The position numbers were made by a program, and so were the translations under genes. This document shows, in pieces, positions 12,428 to 64,000 of a stretch of DNA of 64,000 bases; within the stretch, counting starts at the first letter, position 1, and each line of letters begins with the position of its first letter. Under the pieces are notes generated by a model. The model had not been told where the DNA came from and searched no databases. It was given only the letters and a program-made list of their open reading frames with translations. The DNA is taken from assembly GCA_022824615.1 (NCBI GenBank), contig JAJDZM010000093.1:654-64653 (forward strand), in the 5' to 3' direction. This DNA comes from Candidatus Binatia bacterium (GTDB taxonomy: Bacteria > Desulfobacterota > Binatia > Bin18).

Positions 12428-13792
12428 ATGAGTGATGCGCCTGCCAGGCTGGAAGAATACGCACCAGAATCAATCCTGACGATTGACGAATACGAGCCCT
12501 ATATCGGCCAGGAAGGGGTCGATGCGCTCAAGCAGCTTGCCGCTCCCGTTGAAGGGAAAGGCTGGGCAAATATCAACTCGACCTTTGTGGGCGGTGGGGT
12601 GGCGGAGATGCTGCGGAGTGTGATTCCGCTTGCCCGCTCACTCGGTGTTCACGCCCGCTGGTTTACCATCCAGGGCCATGAGGCGTTTTTTCATGTCACC
12701 AAGAAGTTTCACAACACGCTCCAGGGCGTAGACCAGCCGATTTCTCTTCAGGAACTGTTTGAAACCTATTTGGATAATCTGGCCGCCCACGCTCAAAATG
12801 CCGCAATAGAATCTGATCTGATTGTTGTCCACGATCCCCAACCTGCGGCGCTGATTATGAGTGGCCTGCTCATGGGCAATGTGCTGTGGCGGTGCCATAT
12901 TGACACGTCAACGCCGAACCCGACGGTGTGGCGTTTCCTGGCCCCCTACCTCAACCAGTATGCGGGTGCGATTTTTACCATGCCCGAGTTTGTCGGACCG
13001 GGATTACAGATTCCCCAATACCAGATTACGCCGTGCATAGACCCGCGGGTGGAAAAAAATCAGCAGTATACCGAAACCCGTGCCAAAGAGGTGCTCGCCC
13101 CACTGTTCCGGCAGCATGTGATCGACCCCGACCGTCCGATTCTCGCTGCCATTTCACGCTATGATATCCATAAAAATCAGGCGTCTATCCTGAGTGCTTT
13201 CAAACGCCTGCGTCAGCACAAGACCTATGACCCGATGCCCTATCTCATCTTTCTGGGCAACACCGCAACCGATGACCCGGAGGGTGAGGCCATGCTGGAG
13301 CAACTGCAAGCGCAAGCCGGCGCTGACCCTGATATCCGTTTCTGGGTCAATGTTGAAAACAACGATCAGGTCGTCGGTTCGCTGATGCGTCTGGCCCGGG
13401 GCTTCGTCCATATCTCAACCCGCGAAGGCTTTGGCCTGGTCGTGTCCGAGGCGTTGTGGCAGGGAACCCCGGTTATTGGCTCGCGTGTCGGGGGGATTGT
13501 GCAACAAGTCATTGACGGGCAGACGGGTTATCTGGTTGAACCCATGGACGTTGAGGCAATTGCAACGAAAATGGCCCGGATTCTTGATGAGCCAGAGCAA
13601 ACGGCACGACTCGGCCGGCAGGCTCAGGAACATGTGCGTCAAAATTTTCTGCTACCGGAATTGGTTCGGCGCTATCTGATCCTGCTCCGCTATTACACCG
13701 GAGTTGACCGAGACCACCCGACGTTTCGCCTGAACCCAACCAGCTATCACGAGGTGCTGGCCAGCCTTCTACCAATACCCGCCGACTTGTGA
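12428..13792 (+). CDS. GT4-family glycosyltransferase (trehalose-synthase/TreT-like architecture)
   Basis: C-terminal GT4 core (ISTREGFGLVVSEALWQGTPVIGSRVGGI, E-x7-E). Long N-terminal domain as in TreT / glucosyl-glycerate-synthase-like enzymes. Confidence 0.75.
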   Translation: MSDAPARLEEYAPESILTIDEYEPYIGQEGVDALKQLAAPVEGKGWANINSTFVGGGVAEMLRSVIPLARSLGVHARWFTIQGHEAFFHVTKKFHNTLQGVDQPISLQELFETYLDNLAAHAQNAAIESDLIVVHDPQPAALIMSGLLMGNVLWRCHIDTSTPNPTVWRFLAPYLNQYAGAIFTMPEFVGPGLQIPQYQITPCIDPRVEKNQQYTETRAKEVLAPLFRQHVIDPDRPILAAISRYDIHKNQASILSAFKRLRQHKTYDPMPYLIFLGNTATDDPEGEAMLEQLQAQAGADPDIRFWVNVENNDQVVGSLMRLARGFVHISTREGFGLVVSEALWQGTPVIGSRVGGIVQQVIDGQTGYLVEPMDVEAIATKMARILDEPEQTARLGRQAQEHVRQNFLLPELVRRYLILLRYYTGVDRDHPTFRLNPTSYHEVLASLLPIPADL

Positions 13793-13905
13793 GTCCGTTG
13801 AGTCTATGGAGTCTCTTGGGTCCTTTGAGTCCTTGACTCAACAGACGCTATAGACCCAACAGACCCCATTGACCCTATTGACTCAATAGACTCCATAGAC
13901 ATAGG
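13791..13905. repeat. palindromic array of 9-bp units (5 x GRGTCYNTK forward, then about 7 units in reverse orientation ...NAGAC(C/T)C...) filling the GT4-rfbB intergenic region
   Basis: GAGTCCGTT GAGTCTATG GAGTCTCTT GGGTCCTTT GAGTCCTTG | ACTCAACAG ACGCTATAG ACCCAACAG ACCCCATTG ACCCTATTG ACTCAATAG ACTCCATAG AC. Same unit family as the array at 54215. Confidence 0.85.
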
Positions 13906-13916
13906 CATGAGCACGT

Positions 13917-15017
13917 ATGGAGACCATGTTGATCACTGGCGGGGCAGGGTTTATCGGGAGCAATCTGGTTCGCCTCGCCCTGGCCGAAACAACGGCCTCT
14001 GTCATCATCGTTGATAAGTTGACGTATGCCGGCAGTCTGAACAATCTTGAAGACGTCCTCCACAATCCGCGTGTGACCTTTTCCCGGACCGATATCACCG
14101 AGCAGACGGCGGTGGCGGAATTATTCCGGACGTATCGGCCTCAGGCCGTGGTGAACTGCGCCGCGGAGACCCATGTGGACCGTTCCATTGACAATCCCTG
14201 GCCGTTTGTTGAAACGAATCTGCTTGGAACATTTTATTTGCTGGAGGAGGCCCGAAAATATGCGGCTTCCCCGTCCGTCCAGGGACAGTTCCGCTTTTTG
14301 CACGTCTCGACAGACGAAGTATACGGCAGCCTTGGGCCGCTGGGCCGCTTTTCCGAATCCAGCCCATACGCGCCGAATTCGCCGTATTCCGCCTCAAAGG
14401 CGAGCGCCGATCATTTTGCCCGCGCCTATTACGAGACGTATGGTCTGCACACGCTGATCACGAGTTGTTCCAATAATTATGGCCCCTATCAGTTTCCGGA
14501 AAAACTCATCCCGCTGATGATTCTGAACGCCCTTGAGGGCAAATCCCTTCCAATCTACGGCGATGGACAACACGTCCGTGACTGGCTGTACGTTGAAGAC
14601 CACTGTCGGGGCATCTTGCTTGTTTTGCGGCAGGGCAAGAGTGGCGAACAATATCATATCGGGGGGGGAAATGAGCGGACCAATCGTGCGGTTGTGGAGC
14701 AGGTCTGTACCATTCTTGAGGCACTGCTACCGGCCTCAAAAAATGCGGCTCTTAAGCAGCGAGGCATTCCAGCCTACTCCGAGCTGATGACCTTTGTGAC
14801 CGATCGTCCCGGCCATGATCGACGCTATGCCATCGACGCCACAAAAATCAGAACCCAGCTCGGTTGGCGGCCACGCTACACGTTCGAGCGTGGCCTGGCA
14901 CAGACGATCCGTTGGTATGTGGACAATCGGCGGTGGTGTGAAGCTATTGAGGCGGACAGGTATAACCGCGAGCGTCTGGGGTTAGGTGCTGCGCCTCTGA
15001 CAAAGGATAGATCATGA
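13917..15017 (+). CDS. rfbB: dTDP-glucose 4,6-dehydratase
   Basis: TGGAGFIGS Rossmann motif, YSASKA catalytic motif, full-length similarity to RfbB. Confidence 0.9.
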
Positions 15018-54214: not shown

Positions 54215-54304
54215 TTGGGTCTATGGGGTCTGTTGGGTCTATGGGGTCTGTTGGGTCTGTTGGGTCTGTTGGGTCTGTTGGGCCGGACTCAAGGGACTCA
54301 ATGT
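54215..54304. repeat. tandem array of eight 9-bp units (TTGGGTCTR/TGGGGTCTG) followed by two reverse-type units (GACTCAAGG GACTCAATG), directly after the rpoD stop codon
   Basis: TTGGGTCTA TGGGGTCTG TTGGGTCTA TGGGGTCTG TTGGGTCTG x3 TTGGGCCGG. Same unit family as 13791-13905. Confidence 0.85.
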
Positions 54305-56357: not shown

Positions 56358-56957
56358 CTACTTGATCCGCAGTTTTCCGAACCAGTACTGTAGCCCATGG
56401 AGCATCTCGTCCTGAGCCCCGCCCGGGTCGTCTGCGTGGGCGACATAGACTCCCGCTTCGAGGAGAGCCCCCCACACCAGACGGGCGAGCGCTTGGCACG
56501 GGACCTTGTCTTCGATAAAGCCTTCTGCTCTCAACTGCTCGAAGCCATGCACGATGAAATGCATGGCCGGTACGTTTTTATGCCAGATGTCCGGGGATAA
56601 CACGGACGGGCCGTCAGTGAAAATGATACGCTGCGCGTCCTCTTTAGACATGGATTCAATAGCAACGGAGAGCCCGGTCTCGACAAGCCGCTCCCAGATG
56701 CTGCCCTTAGCATCTTGTATACGCGCCAGAAGCGCCTGCGTCCGAGTTTGTCGAAACTGCTCAAAAACGGCTTTGAATAAGGCTTCCTTGTCCAGAAAAT
56801 GATAATACAGCGCCCCTCTGGTCACCTTGGCGCGGTCCACAATATCGCTCGTGGAGGTGGCAGCATAGCCTCGCTCGGCAAAGAGTTCACGGGCAATGTC
56901 CAGTAGTGTGGTTCTGGTCTTCTCGTATTGCTCTGCTTTTGTGAGACCTGCTGTCAT
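56358..56957 (-). CDS. TetR/AcrR-family transcriptional regulator
   Basis: N-terminal HTH TRTTLLDIARELFAERGYAATSTSDIVDRAKVTRGALYYHF. Confidence 0.8.
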   Translation of the reverse strand: MTAGLTKAEQYEKTRTTLLDIARELFAERGYAATSTSDIVDRAKVTRGALYYHFLDKEALFKAVFEQFRQTRTQALLARIQDAKGSIWERLVETGLSVAIESMSKEDAQRIIFTDGPSVLSPDIWHKNVPAMHFIVHGFEQLRAEGFIEDKVPCQALARLVWGALLEAGVYVAHADDPGGAQDEMLHGLQYWFGKLRIK

Positions 56958-57072
56958 TCCACACCCCTTAAAATGATCTACATTTCAGAAAACCTATGTA
57001 TACATATCACCTGTATTTATCATTGTCAACATCACGGCCCAAGCAAATAATTCCCTCCTCTGCCGCAGATAT

Positions 57073-57171
57073 CTGACATACAAACAGGGTATATCTTAAC
57101 TGGGGGTTGACATACAAGCAGGATATATTTTAGTATGCGGGAAGAATACAGACAGTATACGTTTTAACTGG
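57073..57171 (+). promoter_or_regulatory. three tandem approx 30-bp direct repeats, each with a TTGACA-like -35 hexamer and a 17-bp-spaced -10-like hexamer (candidate duplicated promoter/operator modules). A fourth partial copy is at 57281-57293
   Basis: cTGACAtacaaacagggtatatcTTAACTgg / TTGACAtacaagcaggatatattTTAGTAtg / aGAATACagacagtatacgttTTAACTgg. AT-rich divergent region between the TetR gene and the lipoprotein gene. Confidence 0.45.
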
Positions 57172-57300
57172 CAAGCTGAACGACGTTGAGGGACGTCCGG
57201 CCATGACTCACTGTTTAAGACACTTGGGTAACGTCTGGTAGGGATTCTCAGGGCAATGCATCGAACCGAGTCCGTCTGGACTTGACATACACCATGAAAC

Positions 57301-58029
57301 ATGAAGATTTTCTCTTCTCTTCTCTTCTCTTCTCTTCTCTTCTCTTCTCTTCTCTTCTCTTCTCTGAGCGCGTGTAGCAGCGCCACAGTCGGAAGAGAAG
57401 CGTTGAACCCGGCCCAACAGCAGATGTTGGACCGTGGTCTGGAAGTGTCGTCCGTCGCCGTCAAAACCGGCCAGCCCATTGCTGCGGGACGGATGTATGA
57501 ACGCCTGTCCACCTCCTTCCCGAGCGCCCCGGAACCGAAACTCGGGCTCGCCTATATGGCCCTGCACGCGGGCGACTTTGCGACCGCCGATGCCCTGTTC
57601 ACCGAAGCCAGTACACTGGCGACGCGACCGGCCCTCAAGGCCGAGGCCCTGCTCGGTGCCGGGCGGGCGAGTCTGGGGCGAGAAGACTTCGCCGCGGCCA
57701 AGACCCACTTCCTCGCCGCGGCCGAACCAGCCCAAGGCTCGCCTGTCGAGTCCTGGGTCATGAACGGTCTGGCGGTCGTGGCCGCGCTCGAAGGCGATTA
57801 CCCCCTGGCCGAGCAACACTACAGAGCAGCGCTGACAGTGGCGTCGCATCCGCTCATCACGGCCAACCTGATGCGGACACTCGTCGAGGCGGGCCGCATA
57901 GACGAAGCCCGCCAACTCCATGCCAGCCACAGCGCCACCTACTGGGCGGAAGGCGACAGGGCCGAGTTGTCACAACTGCTCAAAAACAGCACCACACGCG
58001 GGACGGAGCAAACGCCGGTCACTGAGTGA
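57301..58029 (+). CDS. TPR-like (Ala-rich helical repeat) lipoprotein whose signal peptide is encoded by a pentanucleotide repeat
   Basis: MKIFSSLLFSSLLFSSLLFSSLSAC with lipobox LSAC. Downstream TPR-like helices (GLAYMALHAGDFATADALF...). Confidence 0.6.
   Translation: MKIFSSLLFSSLLFSSLLFSSLSACSSATVGREALNPAQQQMLDRGLEVSSVAVKTGQPIAAGRMYERLSTSFPSAPEPKLGLAYMALHAGDFATADALFTEASTLATRPALKAEALLGAGRASLGREDFAAAKTHFLAAAEPAQGSPVESWVMNGLAVVAALEGDYPLAEQHYRAALTVASHPLITANLMRTLVEAGRIDEARQLHASHSATYWAEGDRAELSQLLKNSTTRGTEQTPVTE
57310..57364 (+). repeat. (TTCTC)11 perfect pentanucleotide microsatellite inside the 5' coding region
   Basis: 55 bp perfect repeat starting 9 nt after the ATG. It encodes (SSLLF)n in frame. 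Confidence 0.95.
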
Positions 58030-58037
58030 GGAAAGGT

Positions 58038-59297
58038 ATGATGCATACAAGGCAAACGACCCCCAAGCCGTCTCACCGCCTACTGCGGGCGTTCGGCCTC
58101 AGTCTGGCACTCAGCCTCGGGTCCGCCGAATATGGAGCAGCGGCAGAGCCGATCAAGCCGCTCCCGGTCATGATTGAGGTGAACGAAGCCAAAGCCGAAC
58201 TCGGCAGGCTGCTGTTCCACGAACCGAGATTGTCCAAGAACGACACCATCTCCTGCGCCACCTGCCACGACCTGAGCGCCGGTGGGGATGACGGACAGGT
58301 CGTGTCCACCGGCATTGAGGGCCGGACCGGGCTCGTGAACGCGCCCACCGTGTTCAACTCCGCCTACAATTTCAAGCAGTTCTGGGACGGCCGGGCACAT
58401 ACCCTCAAAGAGCAGGTTGACGGCCCGCTCCAGAGCCGCATCGAGATGGAAAGCATCTGGCCCGATGTCGTGACCAAACTCTTTCAGGATAAAGACTATC
58501 CCCGCATGTTTCAGCAGGCCTATCCCAATGATTCTCAGATTATTTCTCGCGAGAACATCAAAGATGCCATTGCCGAGTTCCAGCGTTCCCTGATCACGCC
58601 CAACAGTCGTTTCGACCAATGGCTCAGAGGCAACGTTGGAGCCATCAACGAACAGGAGAAAGAGGGCTACGCCTTGTTCAAGCGCTACGGCTGTGTGTCC
58701 TGCCATCAAGGGGCCAATGTCGGCGGCAATATGTTCCAGGTCTTTGGGGTCATTAACGACTATTTCAGAAAGCGGGGCAATATCACCGACGCCGACCTGG
58801 GACGCTTCAACGTGACCGGAAACGAGGTCGACAAACACGCCTTCAAGGTCCCCAGCCTGCGCATGGCCGCTCATACCGCCCCCTATCTGCACGACGGCAG
58901 CGCCGGGACCCTGCGCGACGCGGTCGATGCCATGTTCGAGTTCCAGCTCGGACGAGAAGCCCCGGACGAAGACAAAGAGGCTATCGTGGCCTTCATCAAG
59001 ACGCTGGCAGGAGAGTATCGAGAAAGCAATTACCGCTTTGACCTTGGAGAGAGCCCGCTGTCTGCCGAGTTCCAGGAAGACAGTCGCAACGGACACCTCG
59101 GGCAGAGTCCCGCGCCGAACGGCCTCCAAGAAATCTCTGTGGTAGAGACCGTTGAGGGGAGTCCTCCCGCGGACATCGCCGAAACCATTTCCCAAAACGG
59201 CAAGGCCCCCCCGCTCCGTACGGGTCGAGCCGCCAAACCCGCCGCCGAAAGCGAAGCAGCCGGACGTTCGGGGCGTTCGGGGCGTTCGGGACGATAA
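58038..59297 (+). CDS. di-haem cytochrome c peroxidase (CCP/MauG family), paralogue of 36402-37378
   Basis: CATCHDLS and CVSCHQG haem sites, FKVPSLRM, PYLHDGSAGTLRDAVD, DKEAIVAFIKTL (identical block in the paralogue). C-terminal tail ends in GRSGRSGRSGR (9-bp x3 repeat). Confidence 0.85.
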   Translation: MMHTRQTTPKPSHRLLRAFGLSLALSLGSAEYGAAAEPIKPLPVMIEVNEAKAELGRLLFHEPRLSKNDTISCATCHDLSAGGDDGQVVSTGIEGRTGLVNAPTVFNSAYNFKQFWDGRAHTLKEQVDGPLQSRIEMESIWPDVVTKLFQDKDYPRMFQQAYPNDSQIISRENIKDAIAEFQRSLITPNSRFDQWLRGNVGAINEQEKEGYALFKRYGCVSCHQGANVGGNMFQVFGVINDYFRKRGNITDADLGRFNVTGNEVDKHAFKVPSLRMAAHTAPYLHDGSAGTLRDAVDAMFEFQLGREAPDEDKEAIVAFIKTLAGEYRESNYRFDLGESPLSAEFQEDSRNGHLGQSPAPNGLQEISVVETVEGSPPADIAETISQNGKAPPLRTGRAAKPAAESEAAGRSGRSGRSGR

Positions 59298-59328: not shown

Positions 59329-61140
59329 ATGAGATCCAAATCCATGACCATCGGCATCTTCCTGTCCGTCGCTCTGATCGGAACCGCCGCCGGATTTTAC
59401 TGGATGGCCGCGCAGGCCAAAGCCGGCGAGCATCACCTGGCCATTTCCACCGTGCGGCAGCTTCAGCACCTCGAATCCCAGTGGAGTGTCGAAGTGGCCC
59501 GCGTCCGCTCCGACCCCTTTGCCGACTTCGACTCCCTGACCCAATTCATTCCCCGGATGGAACGCCTCAAAGAGACCCTGACCGATACCATCCAGGGCAT
59601 CCCCAGCCTGCCGAACCGGCTGGCCAACACCACGGGTGCCTACCTGAGCGCCCTGACCGCCAAGGAAGAGCGCATTGAGCGCTTCAAAACCGGCTATGCG
59701 GTGCTGCGCAATTCTGTGCGTTACCTGCCGTTGGCTGCCACCAATGTCATGCAACAAATGCAGACCCGTGGGGCCAACTCGGCTTTTATCAAGAACGTGG
59801 CGACCGTCACCGACGAGATCAACACCTATCTGGCGAGCCCGGCTCCCCCGGAAAAAGAGCGGCTGACACGGGTGCTGGCCGAACTGGGCGACAGTATTGC
59901 GACCCAGCACCCCGCCTTGGTCAACTCCGCCATGAATTTTGTCGCGCACGGCCAGGTCCTGCTCGAAAAACAAGCCCCGACCGAGGAGATATTCCAGGAG
60001 GCGACCTCCGATCAGGTCGGTGACCTGGGCGAAACCATCATCAAGGGCTTGGAGTCTGAGATCGACCGAACCGAGGCCTTGGCCGCCTGGTACGAGCGCG
60101 GCATCGTCGGCACCGGTGTGGTGCTCTGGGTGATGTGGCTGACCATCGCGGTCAGAATGCCGTCCAGGGGCAAAGGCCAGCCGCGCAAAGACAGTCTGGC
60201 GTCCAGCATGGCGTCCCGGCAGCAACCAAACCCGCTGCTGCTGAGAGAACAGGCCACACCCGGACCGGACGAAGGGCTCGAACGCCTGACCGTCGACCTC
60301 ATGAAAGCCGGGCAGTTCGACGCGGAAGAGCGAGACCCGACCGCAACCGCAGCGTTTACCGCCTATCAGGTCGGAGTGGACATCGCCGCCGAGCGGCTGG
60401 TGGCCCTGGCCGAGCGCATCAACAGCAGCACCGAGATGCTCACCGACCTGCCGGACCAGCCGGCGGACAATGGCGCGGAGGCTGCCGACCCCGAGATGCT
60501 CGCCGACGACCTGCCGGACCAGCCGGCGGACAATGGGGCAGAATTTGCCGACGGGGCAGAGTTTGCCGACACCTCGGACGGAGACCGGGACGCCGTCGCC
60601 GCGGTCGTCGCCAGCATCCACACCCAGACCAACGATATCGTGGCCTTGGCCAAGCGCCTGCCCGCCTTGGCACCCAAACGCGACGAGGGCTACGCCCAAA
60701 TCGACCTCAACGATTACCTCGACGAAATCGCCGACACCATCCAGGCCAAAGGCCGGTCGTTAGTCGTCAAGGAGTTGAATCCGCTGCCGAGCCTGCCGGT
60801 CTCAGAATCCGATGTGACCCTGATGCTGACCAACATTCTGGACAATGCCGCCTTGGCGATTCAGGAGCGCGGCCAGAAGAAAGGCATTATTCGGGTGGAG
60901 ACCAAACAGGAGAACGACAACGTCACGGTGACCGTCTCCGATAACGGCATCGGTATTCGACCCGAACGCCGCAAGAAAGTCTTTCAGCCGTTCTACACCA
61001 CCCGCGAGGGGGCTTTGGGCATGGGGCTGACGATCGCCAAAAATCTGGTAGAGAAATATGGGGGCAGTATCGCGATGAACTCCATGCACCACCGCGGCAC
61101 GGTCGTTCGGGTCACCCTGCCCATCCGCACGTATGCGTAA
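59329..61140 (+). CDS. sensor histidine kinase, atypical (periplasmic helical sensor domain, acidic repeat-containing linker, HATPase_c)
   Basis: C-terminal HATPase_c (NILDNAALAI...VSDNGIGIRPERRKKVFQPFYTT...GMGLTIAKNLVEKYGGSI). Signal/TM at N-terminus and a second TM around residue 265. No canonical H-box seen; a possible His is at SIHTQTNDIVALAKRL. Confidence 0.7.
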   Translation: MRSKSMTIGIFLSVALIGTAAGFYWMAAQAKAGEHHLAISTVRQLQHLESQWSVEVARVRSDPFADFDSLTQFIPRMERLKETLTDTIQGIPSLPNRLANTTGAYLSALTAKEERIERFKTGYAVLRNSVRYLPLAATNVMQQMQTRGANSAFIKNVATVTDEINTYLASPAPPEKERLTRVLAELGDSIATQHPALVNSAMNFVAHGQVLLEKQAPTEEIFQEATSDQVGDLGETIIKGLESEIDRTEALAAWYERGIVGTGVVLWVMWLTIAVRMPSRGKGQPRKDSLASSMASRQQPNPLLLREQATPGPDEGLERLTVDLMKAGQFDAEERDPTATAAFTAYQVGVDIAAERLVALAERINSSTEMLTDLPDQPADNGAEAADPEMLADDLPDQPADNGAEFADGAEFADTSDGDRDAVAAVVASIHTQTNDIVALAKRLPALAPKRDEGYAQIDLNDYLDEIADTIQAKGRSLVVKELNPLPSLPVSESDVTLMLTNILDNAALAIQERGQKKGIIRVETKQENDNVTVTVSDNGIGIRPERRKKVFQPFYTTREGALGMGLTIAKNLVEKYGGSIAMNSMHHRGTVVRVTLPIRTYA

Positions 61141-61167: not shown

Positions 61168-61782
61168 ATGCCTCATATCGGTCGTGTTTCAGTTCTGCCT
61201 CGTCTCTTTCTCAGGAATCGCCGCTCGCCAACGCCCGCTGCATCACCCCCCACCCATCTCACTTGGTTCCTCACCTGCCGCCGCGGCACCGTTGCCCTGG
61301 AGAGCGCCATTGCCGTCATCCCCCTCATCATTTGTCTGGTCGGGGTGTTCGAGATCGTCCAGTCTGTTTTTGTCCGCGACCTGACCCAGCGCGCCGCCTA
61401 CCGGGTCGCCTATGCCAATGCGCTGCGCGCCGGCGCGGCCGCCGACATACCGGAACTGCGGACACAATTACGGGAATGGGTCCAGGCCGAAGTCGGTGAT
61501 CTGCCCAGTTTCGAGTTGGCCGGTCAAGGCGTGTGCCGTAAGACTCCGGATCAGGATGACCCCCCGGTAGACTTTTGCCTGGATGTTAAGGTCTACAACA
61601 GCCCGACCGACATGCTGAACGGCACGCCGTCGCAGGGCGGCAACGCCGGGCTCGGCGGTAATGCCTGCGACATGGTGGTCGTCAAAGTGGTGGCGCAGCG
61701 TCTCTTCGGCACTCCTGACGTGGATGCCTTGACCGTAGCAGTTCGGCGCAACGAACCAAGTGATGTGTCATGCCCAACATGA
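61168..61782 (+). CDS. TadE-like (Flp-pilus assembly) protein
   Basis: TadE/TadG N-terminal motif RRGTVALESAIAVIPLIICLVGVFEI. Confidence 0.55.
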   Translation: MPHIGRVSVLPRLFLRNRRSPTPAASPPTHLTWFLTCRRGTVALESAIAVIPLIICLVGVFEIVQSVFVRDLTQRAAYRVAYANALRAGAAADIPELRTQLREWVQAEVGDLPSFELAGQGVCRKTPDQDDPPVDFCLDVKVYNSPTDMLNGTPSQGGNAGLGGNACDMVVVKVVAQRLFGTPDVDALTVAVRRNEPSDVSCPT

Positions 61783-62345
61783 ATGATGGAGCGGGTGTCA
61801 TGAAGAACTGGCTGGACTTCATACGAAATGAGCGCGGCGCTGCCGCCCTGGAAAGCGCGCTCGGGGCCGTCGCCCTCATCACTGTCTCGGTCCTGGCCTT
61901 CGAGCTGTACGTGCGGGCCACCGCGCCGCCGGTCGGGCTGAACACCGCAGTCACCGTCGCCGAGTATGTGAGCCTGGAAGCCCAGCCGGCCGCCACCCAG
62001 ATTGAGGCGCTGGCCAAATTCCTGCACAGGGAATTTTTCCCCCAAGCCGCCACGGTGTTCGTGGTCACCGCCGTCGAGGGTCAAACCGCCCCACAGAAGC
62101 CCACCATGCTGTGGAACAAAGTGATTGCCGTCGGTCCGAACGCCGCGGCTGACACCGGCCTGGCCTCATGCAGCCAAGTTGCCGGAGAGAACAACACGGC
62201 AACGCCTCCCGAGGCTCTGAAGCTGGAGGACGACGAGATTGTTATCGTGGCTGAGGTCTGCGTCAAACAAGCGGACGAAGTGGCGCGCTACCACCATATC
62301 CTGCCCACCCGCTCCGATATTGCGCCAGTTCTCCAGCAGTCTTAG
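61770..62345 (+). CDS. TadE-like protein (second copy)
   Basis: ERGAAALESALGAVALITVSVLAFELY TadE-type N-terminus. 13-nt overlap with the previous gene. Confidence 0.55.
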   Translation: MPNMNDGAGVMKNWLDFIRNERGAAALESALGAVALITVSVLAFELYVRATAPPVGLNTAVTVAEYVSLEAQPAATQIEALAKFLHREFFPQAATVFVVTAVEGQTAPQKPTMLWNKVIAVGPNAAADTGLASCSQVAGENNTATPPEALKLEDDEIVIVAEVCVKQADEVARYHHILPTRSDIAPVLQQS

Positions 62346-62356
62346 GGATTCCATCA

Positions 62357-64000
62357 TGACACAGTACAACAGGACAGAAAGCGCAACGTTCCAACCCAGC
62401 CGCCCGGTCGTCAAACCCACCCCGCCGCTGACGCTGCAATACGCATCACACGTCCAAGGAGGGGATGGGAACAGCTCCCCTCTTGGGAGGGGTGGCCGAA
62501 GGCCGGGGTGGGTACTCCCCCGCTTCCTCCGCGACCGGCGGGCGGCCGGCACGGCCCTGACCGCGGCCCTGTTCACCCTCATGAGCCTGGCCGGCATCGC
62601 CTTTGCCAGCGACCATGTCTGGCTGGTCTATCAGCGCGACCTGCTCAAAGTCGCCTCCGATGCGGCCAGCGTCGCCGTCACCAAAGCCATGAAAACGCTT
62701 GACCCCGGCCTGAAAAAGGACGCGGTCACGGCGGCGCTGCTGCCCACTGCCAAGCGCTATATCCTGGCCAATATCCCGGAAGGCTCCCGCGAGCAGGTAG
62801 AAGACACCTTGGAGATCACGCTTGAACCCAACAGCGCGTACGGCACGGTATACCTCACTGCGACGGCCGAACTCGGCGGCGCGATCTTCGGCACGTGGCT
62901 GTGGGACGCGGTGGCCAGCGAGACCCAGGTGAAGAGCGGGACCGAGCAGGTGGCCAGCGGCGGTGGCCTCATTGAGTTGGCGCTGGCTCTCGATATCACC
63001 GGCTCAATGCGGACGACGATCGTATCCTCAGAGGGAGGTGTCGAGAAGCGTATCAAGCGTATCAAGGTCGTCAAAGATGTCGCCAAAGAGATGGTCAATA
63101 TGCTGGCCGCTGGCAGTGACACCCTTGCGGTCGGCATCGTGCCCTGGCACTACCGGGTCAAGTTCGACCAGGCCACCCGAACGCGCTGGACAGACAAGGG
63201 ATATGCCCAGTATCCGCTCCAGCAGCATTACCCCAACCCCGACAATGAAAACAGATCGAGCGAATCCTACACCCTGCCGACCACTTGGCCAGAACCCTGG
63301 AAGGGCTGTGTGGACCAGCGTGCAACCTCCGGCCAGAACCCGCCCGGCCTGACCGCCGTGCTACCCACGGTCACGCCGTTCAATATGGGGTTTTACTCGC
63401 CCACACCCCAGAACGAGTACCAGAACAATAGGCGGGATAGCAGCATCGCTTTCTCGTGCTACTCGAATCAGGACTTTTGTTATGACCCTGACAGAGAACA
63501 CTATAACCATCCGAACAGCAAAGGCGAGAGGCCGTGGCGGTGGTCGCCGCAGGATAACTGCCACCGCGACAATGAAATCCTGCCGCTGACAACCGATATC
63601 GATACCGTCAAGAGCCACCTTGCCGCCTTGGACGCGGACGGGGGCTCGACCTATTCGACGCTCGGCCTGACGTGGGGCCACCGACTGCTGGCCCCGACCT
63701 GGCGCACCGTCTGGAGCGACGACTCCGAACATCCCATAGACCTGAGCCAGCACGAGCACGCGATGAAAGCGCTGCTGCTGCTGACCGATGGGAGAGATAA
63801 CTTCTACGAGGAGAGCACGGCGAATAGTCATTTCCGGACCGCCTGCACCGCCGCCAAGAAGGATGGCATCGCGGTGTTTATTGTTGCGATCCTGAGCGCA
63901 GCGGAAGCTCACTTTGGGTCCATTAGGAGTCGCATTGAGAACTGTGCGGGCCGTCGTGAATACGACCCGGGACAGTATGCCTTTATCTCCGAAGAGGCTA
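62357..64000 (+). CDS. TadG-like pilus-associated protein with von Willebrand factor A domain, 3' end beyond the window (absent from the supplied ORF track)
   Basis: Frame 2 is open for 548 codons from ATG 62357 to the window end (translated by hand). TM/TadE-like N-terminus (TALTAALFTLMSLAGIAFA). VWA MIDAS LALDITGSM, LLLLTDGRDN, AVFIVAI. The three minus-strand track ORFs across this span are antisense shadows. Confidence 0.65.

Follow-up and report, generated by a model that had tools for sequence, protein, structure and literature searches.

A (TTCTC)n tract in the signal-peptide coding region of a TPR lipoprotein gene as a candidate phase-variation switch in sponge-associated Binatia

The window analyzed here is a stretch of 64,000 nucleotides from a Candidatus Binatia bacterium (contig JAJDZM010000093.1 of assembly GCA_022824615.1), and the gene under study encodes a predicted TPR lipoprotein whose N-terminal coding region shows a perfect pentanucleotide tract, (TTCTC)11, at 57310-57364 of the forward strand. 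The features on which its reading depends, with n as the number of repeat units, are the following:

57301-58029, forward strand: TPR lipoprotein gene, 242 aa, with Pfam TPR matches; candidate TadD/PilF-like secretin pilotin
57301-57303, forward strand: start codon ATG2, in frame with the gene body at n = 2 mod 3 (8, 11, 14); this is the frame used in the window and gives MK(I/T)FSSLL..LSAC
57294-57296, forward strand: start codon ATG1, 7 nt upstream of ATG2 in another frame, in frame with the gene body at n = 0 mod 3 (9, 12, 15); it gives MKHED(F/L)LFSS..LSAC
57364-57375, forward strand: lipobox CTG AGC GCG TGT (L-S-A-C), with Cys25 as the predicted lipidation site according to the alignment of homologues

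The tract starts 9 nt past the A of the ATG at 57301, covers codons 4-22 of the open reading frame (ORF) and abuts the L-S-A-C with its end. The tandem-repeat program TRF, the ORF and the sequence itself thus agree with the original prediction, which had been made from the letters of the window alone and described a perfect 55-bp repeat leading into a lipobox. TRF reported a single pentanucleotide array in the 64 kb (57310-57365, period 5, 11.2 copies, 100% matches, consensus TTCTC), and a 15-nt probe, (TTCTC)3, gave nine overlapping matches in the window, every one within the tract, while 100 dinucleotide-preserving shuffles gave a mean of 0.01 matches; a perfect tract of 11 units is far beyond chance. 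Its coding strand is all pyrimidine and the encoded (FSSLL)n forms the hydrophobic core of the signal peptide, so that the N-terminus of the lipoprotein reads MKIFSSLLFSSLLFSSLLFSSLSAC. The locus therefore shows one of the attributes by which a simple-sequence contingency locus is recognized, since its perfect repeat units lie in the 5' coding region and their length is no multiple of three. TTCTC is a rotation of CTCTT, the coding repeat of Neisseria opa. The reverse-strand ORFs reading (EKRRE)n, already regarded as artefacts when the tract was first noticed, are mechanical ORFs over the same tract; they were rejected as coding, being antisense readings that overlap the conserved lipoprotein gene of the forward strand.

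Only TPR families were found by Pfam in the lipoprotein (TPR_19, TPR_16 and TPR_12 above cut-off), and its AlphaFold model is all-helical with a pLDDT of 86.9. Most of the 80 homologues found have an ordinary lipoprotein signal peptide at the N-terminus, closed by L-S-A-C, and the alignment of 23 of them shows an invariant lipobox cysteine preceded by nearly invariant leucine and alanine residues. The lipobox rule (PROSITE PS51257) asks for [LVI..]-[ASTG..]-[GAS]-C with the cysteine at 15-35, a lysine or arginine among the first seven residues and no charge in the six residues before the box; checked by hand, MKIFSSLLFSSLLFSSLLFSSLSAC conforms to it with K2 and Cys25, and the cysteine lies at 17-34 in the other alleles. 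Furthermore, TGAGYGCGTGTAG is kept in every tract allele. As a predicted lipoprotein with a conserved lipobox, the product would be a determinant of the cell surface or envelope. Orthologues that do not contain the repeat show ordinary lipoprotein signal peptides at the position occupied by the tract and, because the same L-S-A-C directly follows the tract in the repeat-bearing clade, the repeat has replaced the hydrophobic core of the signal peptide in this clade. The h-region of one such orthologue (locus L007) ends in TTCATCTTCTTGAGCGCGTGC, a plausible seed for the repeat.

The starts assigned by gene callers suggest another explanation, in which the tract lies in a 5' untranslated leader, the true start is a downstream GTG or TTG, and the number of repeats at most tunes transcription or mRNA structure. 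Starts past the tract are given for proteins P0016, P0027, P0029, P0030 and P0081-P0092, and no clear ribosome-binding site precedes ATG1 or ATG2. However, the L-S-A-C that follows the tract aligns with the invariant lipobox of the 22 other homologues, an ATG is in frame with the cysteine codon in 14 of 16 alleles, and the products of the downstream starts lack any signal peptide, which all full-length orthologues have. Because of this lack, and because most of these loci keep the long ORF intact, the objection from downstream starts fails and a leader of this kind is very improbable; the tract lies within the true coding frame, the point on which the original prediction had declared itself vulnerable. 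A practical consequence is that public protein collections hold truncated, signal-less forms of this lipoprotein, since gene callers avoid the repeat and start at GTG or TTG.

Initiation codons are found upstream of the repeat in two of the three frames, whereas the third frame shows a TGA at 57302-57304. All 10 tract-bearing loci in the alignment keep the ATGAAACATGAAGA motif, L004 with a single substitution, and both starts are used among the alleles, ATG1 by L002 (n=9), L008 (n=15), P0091 (n=9) and P0093 (n=12). A simulation of the frames over n = 5-16 showed that at n = 1 mod 3 neither start reaches the gene body: their frames stop at TGA (57365-57367) or TAG (57375-57377), two out-of-frame stops within the 13 nt of the lipobox stretch, so that both wrong-frame products end at most five codons past the tract, and the remaining product is a leaderless protein of 208 aa from a downstream TTG. 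Because the two ATGs are separated by 7 nt and read different frames, the locus would be a switch of three states. The n-regions of the two full-length forms differ, MK- from ATG2 and MKHED- (K, H, E, D) from ATG1, and the acidic n-region of the latter is probably a poorer export signal, which would give a pattern of strong, weak and off. The original prediction, in which the gain or loss of one or two units switches the gene off, was therefore half right: at n = 1 mod 3 the simulation gives no exported lipoprotein, but the ATG at 57294, which had been overlooked, reads the frame reached by the addition of one unit. Its other statement, that steps of three units keep the frame and change the signal peptide by five residues, agrees with the simulation and with one pair of proteins (P0002 and P0093) that differ by one LLFSS block.

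Repeat units in related loci were counted in DNA between the conserved ATGAAACATGAAGA and TGAGCGCGTGTAGC, and for two alleles from the protein. L061 was excluded as an error-ridden long-read contig with many frameshifted genes and indels around the tract, and L064 and L065 were left uncounted since these contigs begin inside the tract. The 16 distinct alleles range between 5 and 15 units: 10 have ATG2 in frame, four have ATG1 in frame and two are OFF.

11 units, ATG2 in frame: the window, L005, L062 (equal to L063), L066, L009 and L070
8 units, ATG2 in frame: L003 (equal to L012), L067 and L068
9 units, ATG1 in frame: L002 and P0091
12 units, ATG1 in frame: P0093
15 units, ATG1 in frame: L008
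13 units, OFF, perfect tract: L069
5 perfect units in an interrupted tract, ATG2 in frame: L060
5 perfect units in an interrupted tract, OFF: L004

The copy number is thus not uniform (5, 8, 9, 11, 12, 13 and 15 units), in line with what phase variation had been expected to leave, and it differs between near-identical sequences. L066 (n=11) and L067 (n=8), from two sponge samples, differ by two substitutions in 3461 nt and by a 15-nt gap of exactly three units, and P0002 (n=9) and P0093 (n=12) differ by one residue and by the LLFSS block, five tract residues, mentioned above. Because the members of both pairs are near-identical apart from the tract, these comparisons indicate that the tract mutates faster than its flanks. 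Among the tract-bearing loci the gene bodies are 86-100% identical, those that have diverged showing 86-93%, and over the upstream 200 nt the identity to the window is as low as 71-81%. Despite this flank divergence of 7-29%, the tract is perfect in all lineages but two; it is found in at least three GTDB species representatives besides the window. Both in-frame and out-of-frame alleles are found in nature, 14 ON and two OFF, although the OFF sample is small.

Differences in repeat number could also be produced by assembly or sequencing. Several short-read or Logan contigs break in or beside the tract (L063-L065), the long-read contig L061 is full of indels, and L068 has a coverage of only 2x. 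Nevertheless, different copy numbers (8, 11 and 15) are found among the chromosome-scale assemblies of metagenome-assembled genomes (MAGs) OY763426.1, OZ246888.1 and CBDCPK01, the tract is also found in independent short-read assemblies from seven samples, and ordinary reads span tracts of 55-75 nt. Because it is present in chromosome-scale as well as in short-read assemblies, the tract is not an assembly artefact, and we consider it extremely unlikely that the differences in repeat number are one. An exact-pattern scan of a metagenome contig collection for the tract with its downstream anchor gave no match; L002 (JGI) carries the pattern, therefore the scanned collection simply does not contain such contigs.

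The locus is present twice in each of two MAGs, CBDCPK01 (L008, L017) and CBDEWE01 (L010, L019): the main chromosome carries one copy and a contig of about 110 kb the other. Of the two copies in CBDCPK01, only the 110-kb one has the tract (n=15); this copy is 97.2% identical over 2768 nt to the Ircinia contig L062; because of this 97% identity, the tract-bearing copy may belong to a co-binned second strain.

A simple-repeat scan over all fetched loci (598 kb) showed other repeats at orthologous operons. The first is in L018 (3952-4039; OZ246887.1, Binatia, 5.7 Mb), where (TCTTCGCA)11 lies in frame in the N-terminal coding region of the orthologue and reads MNALRIFASSHLRIFASSH...LSAC; the unit of 8 nt is frame-shifting, and the nearest protein, P0033 (91% identity), shows no repeat. 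In L022 (4654-4692; CBDEVZ010000008.1), (AACAC)7 is found right after an ATG. This ATG overlaps the stop codon of the lipoprotein gene and shares the frame of the cytochrome c peroxidase (CCP) gene downstream (MKHNTTQHNTTQHN...), although it is uncertain as the true start, since about 65 codons separate it from the signal peptide that follows. In addition, runs of C are found between the TetR regulator gene and the lipoprotein gene, of 10 nt in L022 (3814-3823), 23 nt in L025 (3674-3696) and 15 nt in L026 (3787-3801), the exact lengths being unreliable in long-read assemblies; those of L025 and L026 (G on the TetR strand) stop 4-5 nt short of the TetR start codon. In L027, homopolymers at the end of the contig were dismissed as an assembly artefact. 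The unrelated repeats at the same operon in other Binatia lineages look like independent acquisitions, as expected of contingency loci.

The same observations can be read as a tolerated coding microsatellite, grown from the TTC, CTT and CTC codons of the signal-peptide core and drifting in length, of which only frame-preserving changes survive, so that out-of-frame alleles are deleterious mutants or decaying pseudogenes. This would account for the 14 of 16 alleles in frame, for the differences by multiples of three units in both near-identical pairs, for the interrupted and shortened tracts of L004 (OFF) and L060 (ON), as decay predicts, and for TTCATCTTCTTGAGCGCGTGC at the end of the L007 h-region as a seed. 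However, two thirds of 5-nt slippage events shift the frame and synonymous interruptions would be expected in so costly a repeat, yet most lineages keep the tract perfect against a flank divergence of 7-29%. Furthermore, the conserved second start restores reading in one of the two shifted frames and serves four alleles, an OFF allele with a perfect tract exists (L069, n=13), and Neisseria has a proven switch of this design. Repeated independent hypermutable tracts at one operon also weigh against a one-off neutral microsatellite. We regard drift of this kind as unlikely, although it is the main rival of a switch.

We propose instead, with a probability of about 0.65, that we are dealing with a hypermutable simple-sequence repeat, by which translation of the TPR lipoprotein of a sponge-associated Binatia bacterium is phase-variable; the in-frame tract, its non-uniform copy number and the out-of-frame alleles all support the gene as the phase-variable candidate that it was originally thought to be. 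Several points weigh against this proposal. OFF alleles are 2 of 16 versus one third expected under a neutral frame (binomial P=0.059, which is not significant, and the alleles are not independent), and in one of the two, L004, the tract is interrupted and decayed. Within each near-identical pair the difference is exactly three units, which keeps the frame and is equally expected if frameshifts are purged. Some alleles come from short-read or low-coverage assemblies, in which repeat counts are possibly wrong. Finally, no Shine-Dalgarno-like sequence was found before either ATG, and the repeat-encoded h-region is less hydrophobic than that of the orthologues, with a best 10-aa Kyte-Doolittle mean of about 1.8 versus 2.7-3.1.

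The exact protein was found on one metagenome scaffold, KELL22-1_SAMN22237346 scaffold_93, and related loci in GTDB genomes are nearly all from Candidatus Binatia bacterium MAGs. Several of these have isolate names (jk18x.., p16x..) formed like the MAG names of Kelly et al. 2022, who recovered 14 Binatia MAGs from the microbiomes of Caribbean Ircinia sponges (PMC9531527), and we infer that KELL22-1 belongs to that study. Because the MAG names follow the scheme of the Ircinia study, the organism is taken to be a sponge symbiont, that is, a host-associated Binatia of Ircinia metagenomes. The genome has about 5 Mb and a GC content of about 57% (55-60%); the description of a high-GC, environmental-type genome given at first does not hold, since this is a sponge-associated Binatia MAG and not a free-living bacterium.

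Around the lipoprotein gene the window shows the following genes and sites:

56358-56957, reverse strand: divergent TetR-family regulator (Pfam TetR_N, TetR_C_41), syntenic in most Binatia loci
57073-57171, forward strand: three direct repeats with 34-nt spacing (ACATACA..CAG..TATA), containing (T)TGACATACA, seen in the sequence
57107-57136, forward strand: promoter-like site TTGACA-18-TAGTAT, overlapping the 34-nt-spaced repeats
58041-59297, forward strand: di-haem CCP, MauG-MbnH-like (Pfam CCP_MauG 2.5e-57; NCBIfam; called gene)
59329-61140, forward strand: DAHL-domain sensor histidine kinase (Pfam DAHL, HATPase_c)
61168-61782, forward strand: TadE-like protein, 204 aa (weak, sub-threshold PF07811, E=0.0045; its homologue in L052, with 22.0 bits, falls short of the 22.9 cut-off)
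61800-62345, forward strand: p181, 181 aa, no family match, in the position of TadF and co-occurring with the TPR gene across phyla
62356-64000, forward strand: VWA-containing, TadG-like protein, 571 aa, running off the end of the window (its homologue in L024 is above the VWA cut-off)

Pfam and the gene calls confirmed both neighbors named at the outset, the adjacent TetR regulator and the downstream CCP gene. The latter begins 12 nt past the stop codon of the lipoprotein gene, and the two are probably co-transcribed. The 34-nt-spaced repeats are probable TetR operators and overlap the putative promoter of the lipoprotein operon: a fourth TTGACATACA is found at 57282-57291, 3 nt before ATG1, TTGACATAC half-sites recur in related loci, and the region of L018 has a perfect palindrome, TTGACATAC-N9-GTATGTCAA.

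The 5' leader shows a conserved hairpin at 57182-57197 (GACGT-TGAGGG-ACGTC), with compensatory changes (GGCGT/ACGCC and GGCAT/ATGCC) across tract-bearing loci, and has strongly conserved blocks as well (GACTCAC..AAGACAC.TGG.TAACGT); Rfam gave no match for the leader (56900-57450). Upstream of TetR, an insertion sequence with a transposase (DUF4096 and DDE_Tnp_1) is found in strains of some Ircinia samples, L005 (888-1648) and L062 (1-295), while the window has a sigma-70 gene there. In-frame repeats of 9 and 18 nt are found at the CCP C-terminus (RSGRSGRSGR, 59265-59290) and in the linker of the histidine kinase (60445-60570), and are probably length-variable segments of low complexity. An array of a 9-nt unit, TTGGGTCTG x7.6, lies at 54215-54282, just 3' of an rpoD-like gene, and its reverse-complement family, GACCCAACA/ATAGACCCC, lies at 13790-13900 between the ORFs 12428-13792 and 13917-15017; the same 9-mer family is thus present at two intergenic sites of the window.

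The genes that follow the kinase link the lipoprotein to Tad/Flp pili. In L001, the kinase is followed by a weak TadE-like protein, p181, the VWA protein, two weak Flp/Fap-like pilins and a CpaC/RcpA-type secretin; the secretin matches PF13629 and PF00263 above threshold, while neither TadE nor Flp reaches its Pfam cut-off. L023 and L024 show the order CCP, kinase, TPR, TadE-like, p181, VWA, in which the TPR gene directly adjoins the TadE-like gene, an arrangement that we read as the canonical tadD-E-F-G. In addition, alpha- and gammaproteobacterial MAGs have single ORFs that join a homologous TPR domain (40-48% identity) to T2SS-T3SS_pil_N, BON and Secretin domains; the fusion was scanned by Pfam in L052 (3965-6079), about 17 loci have open frames of 619-955 aa including the secretin, and such an ORF would be a pilotin-secretin fusion. 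The loci with the TPR N-terminal to a CpaC/RcpA-type secretin (L042-L059) include Defluviicoccus MAGs named jk18x.. and p16x.. as in the Ircinia study.

The top Foldseek PDB matches of the lipoprotein model are PilF (2ho1/2fi7, E=1.3e-5, TM 0.64-0.71), with many TPR proteins close behind. Membership of the TadD family by sequence was tried and found unsupported: a PDB profile search gave P. aeruginosa TadD (PA4299, 8odn_B) at E=0.019 amid generic TPR matches. Gene context, the secretin fusion and the structural match to PilF lead us, with moderate confidence, to assign the lipoprotein as a TadD/PilF-like pilotin for the secretin of a Tad/Flp pilus. Two points count against extending the proposed switch to the pilus: the pilotin assignment rests on context, with a TadD similarity of E=0.019 and sub-threshold Pfam matches of TadE and Flp, and in the window the CCP and kinase genes separate the lipoprotein gene from the tadE-like gene. 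The CCP was also considered as the functional partner; because the conserved neighbors of the TPR domain across phyla are Tad components and not the CCP, the Tad/Flp genes are the likelier partner.

In the proposed mechanism, slipped-strand mispairing would add or remove 5-nt units within the signal-peptide coding region, presumably at a high and reversible rate. At n = 2 mod 3, as in the window (n=11), ATG2 would direct a canonical lipoprotein precursor, MK(I/T)FSSLL...LSAC; at n = 0 mod 3, ATG1 would direct a full-length MKHED-LLFSS...LSAC that is probably exported less well, the two ON forms being of unequal efficiency; and at n = 1 mod 3 both starts would run into a stop soon after the tract and yield no exported lipoprotein. 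Steps of three units would keep the frame and lengthen or shorten the signal peptide by five residues. If the product is the pilotin, the switch would turn the display of the Tad/Flp pilus on or off in a subpopulation, and the selective agent may be host phagocytosis or a pilus-specific phage. In this clade the lipoprotein gene appears to be the first of its operon, and an early stop could be polar on the downstream CCP, kinase and tadE/F/G-like genes.

Taken further, the locus would be a multi-state contingency locus, evolved by convergence, with which uncultured sponge symbionts switch the display of their Tad/Flp pili; one Binatia clade would have reached the opa device independently and added a second start, and sister lineages would have hit the same operon with an 8-nt coding repeat, with AACAC in the next gene and with C runs by TetR. 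We hold this wider picture tentatively and at somewhat less than even odds. If true, no contingency locus would have been described before it from the Binatota or from a sponge mutualist, and it would imply that phage or host phagocytes exert a strong and fluctuating selection on surface structures within the sponge. Contingency loci made of simple sequences count as a hallmark of animal pathogens and commensals with small genomes. In a search of the literature on phase variation and simple sequence repeats, none of the 12 papers listed of 244 full-text matches mentioned a sponge symbiont. Here a textbook opa device would recur in a 5-Mb genome of an uncultured sponge-dwelling phylum, on a likely pilus-assembly lipoprotein; if real, stochastic surface switching would also be used in ancient invertebrate symbioses, and public metagenomes would be minable for such switches. 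A CTCTT repeat in the leader would then be a convergent optimum, in which all three repeat frames encode the same hydrophobic peptide and the tract is purely pyrimidine.

The closest known system is Neisseria opa, where CTCTT pentamers in the leader-peptide coding region are a proven switch that acts at about 1e-3 per cell per generation (PMC3745409, PMC3960869). The two share the identical pentanucleotide in the hydrophobic core of the signal peptide, read LLFSS, copy numbers in a similar range, and a frame shift of an envelope protein by slipped-strand mispairing, which for the Binatia locus is proposed. They differ in the protein, a TPR lipoprotein with a lipobox here and a beta-barrel adhesin in Opa, in the number of loci, a single one instead of an 11-copy gene family, in the two start codons and two ON frames found here, and in the bacterium, an uncultured sponge symbiont of the Binatota instead of a human pathogen. 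The Binatia protein does not show the beta-barrel of Opa, since Pfam found TPR only and the model is all-helical, and because of this the likeness to opa is one of convergence on a mechanism and not of family membership.

The use of two starts resembles Haemophilus influenzae licA, in which start codons are found in two of the three frames and natural isolates are mostly ON (PMC2212159). In both lic1 (CAAT)n and the Binatia tract, the repeat comes just after starts in two frames, with one OFF and two ON states, and most isolates or alleles are ON; licA differs in its tetranucleotide unit and in its target, a cytoplasmic choline kinase, and its repeat encodes no signal peptide. Helicobacter pylori oipA, hopZ and sabA carry CT repeats in the signal-sequence region of outer-membrane protein genes. 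They are thus similar in that a pyrimidine-rich repeat within the signal-peptide coding region gives ON and OFF frames, and differ in their dinucleotide unit and in their outer-membrane protein products; we know of no dual-start design for these genes.

With respect to the protein, TadD is reported to act as a pilotin (PMC10499894). Like TadD (PA4299) and PilF/PilW, the Binatia protein is a TPR lipoprotein of about 240-255 aa, and the setting of its gene is comparable, with tadE/F/G-like genes and with genes for Flp-like pilins and a CpaC/RcpA-type secretin. Its best structural match is PilF, and the homologous TPR domain is fused to a secretin in other bacteria. Unlike TadD, it shows the marginal sequence similarity given above and has the CCP and kinase genes inserted before the tadE-like gene. 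To our knowledge, no phase-variable pilotin has been reported. The phase-variation candidate is thereby narrowed down to an opa-type CTCTT leader switch, with dual starts, on the probable pilus-secretin pilotin of a sponge-associated Binatia bacterium.

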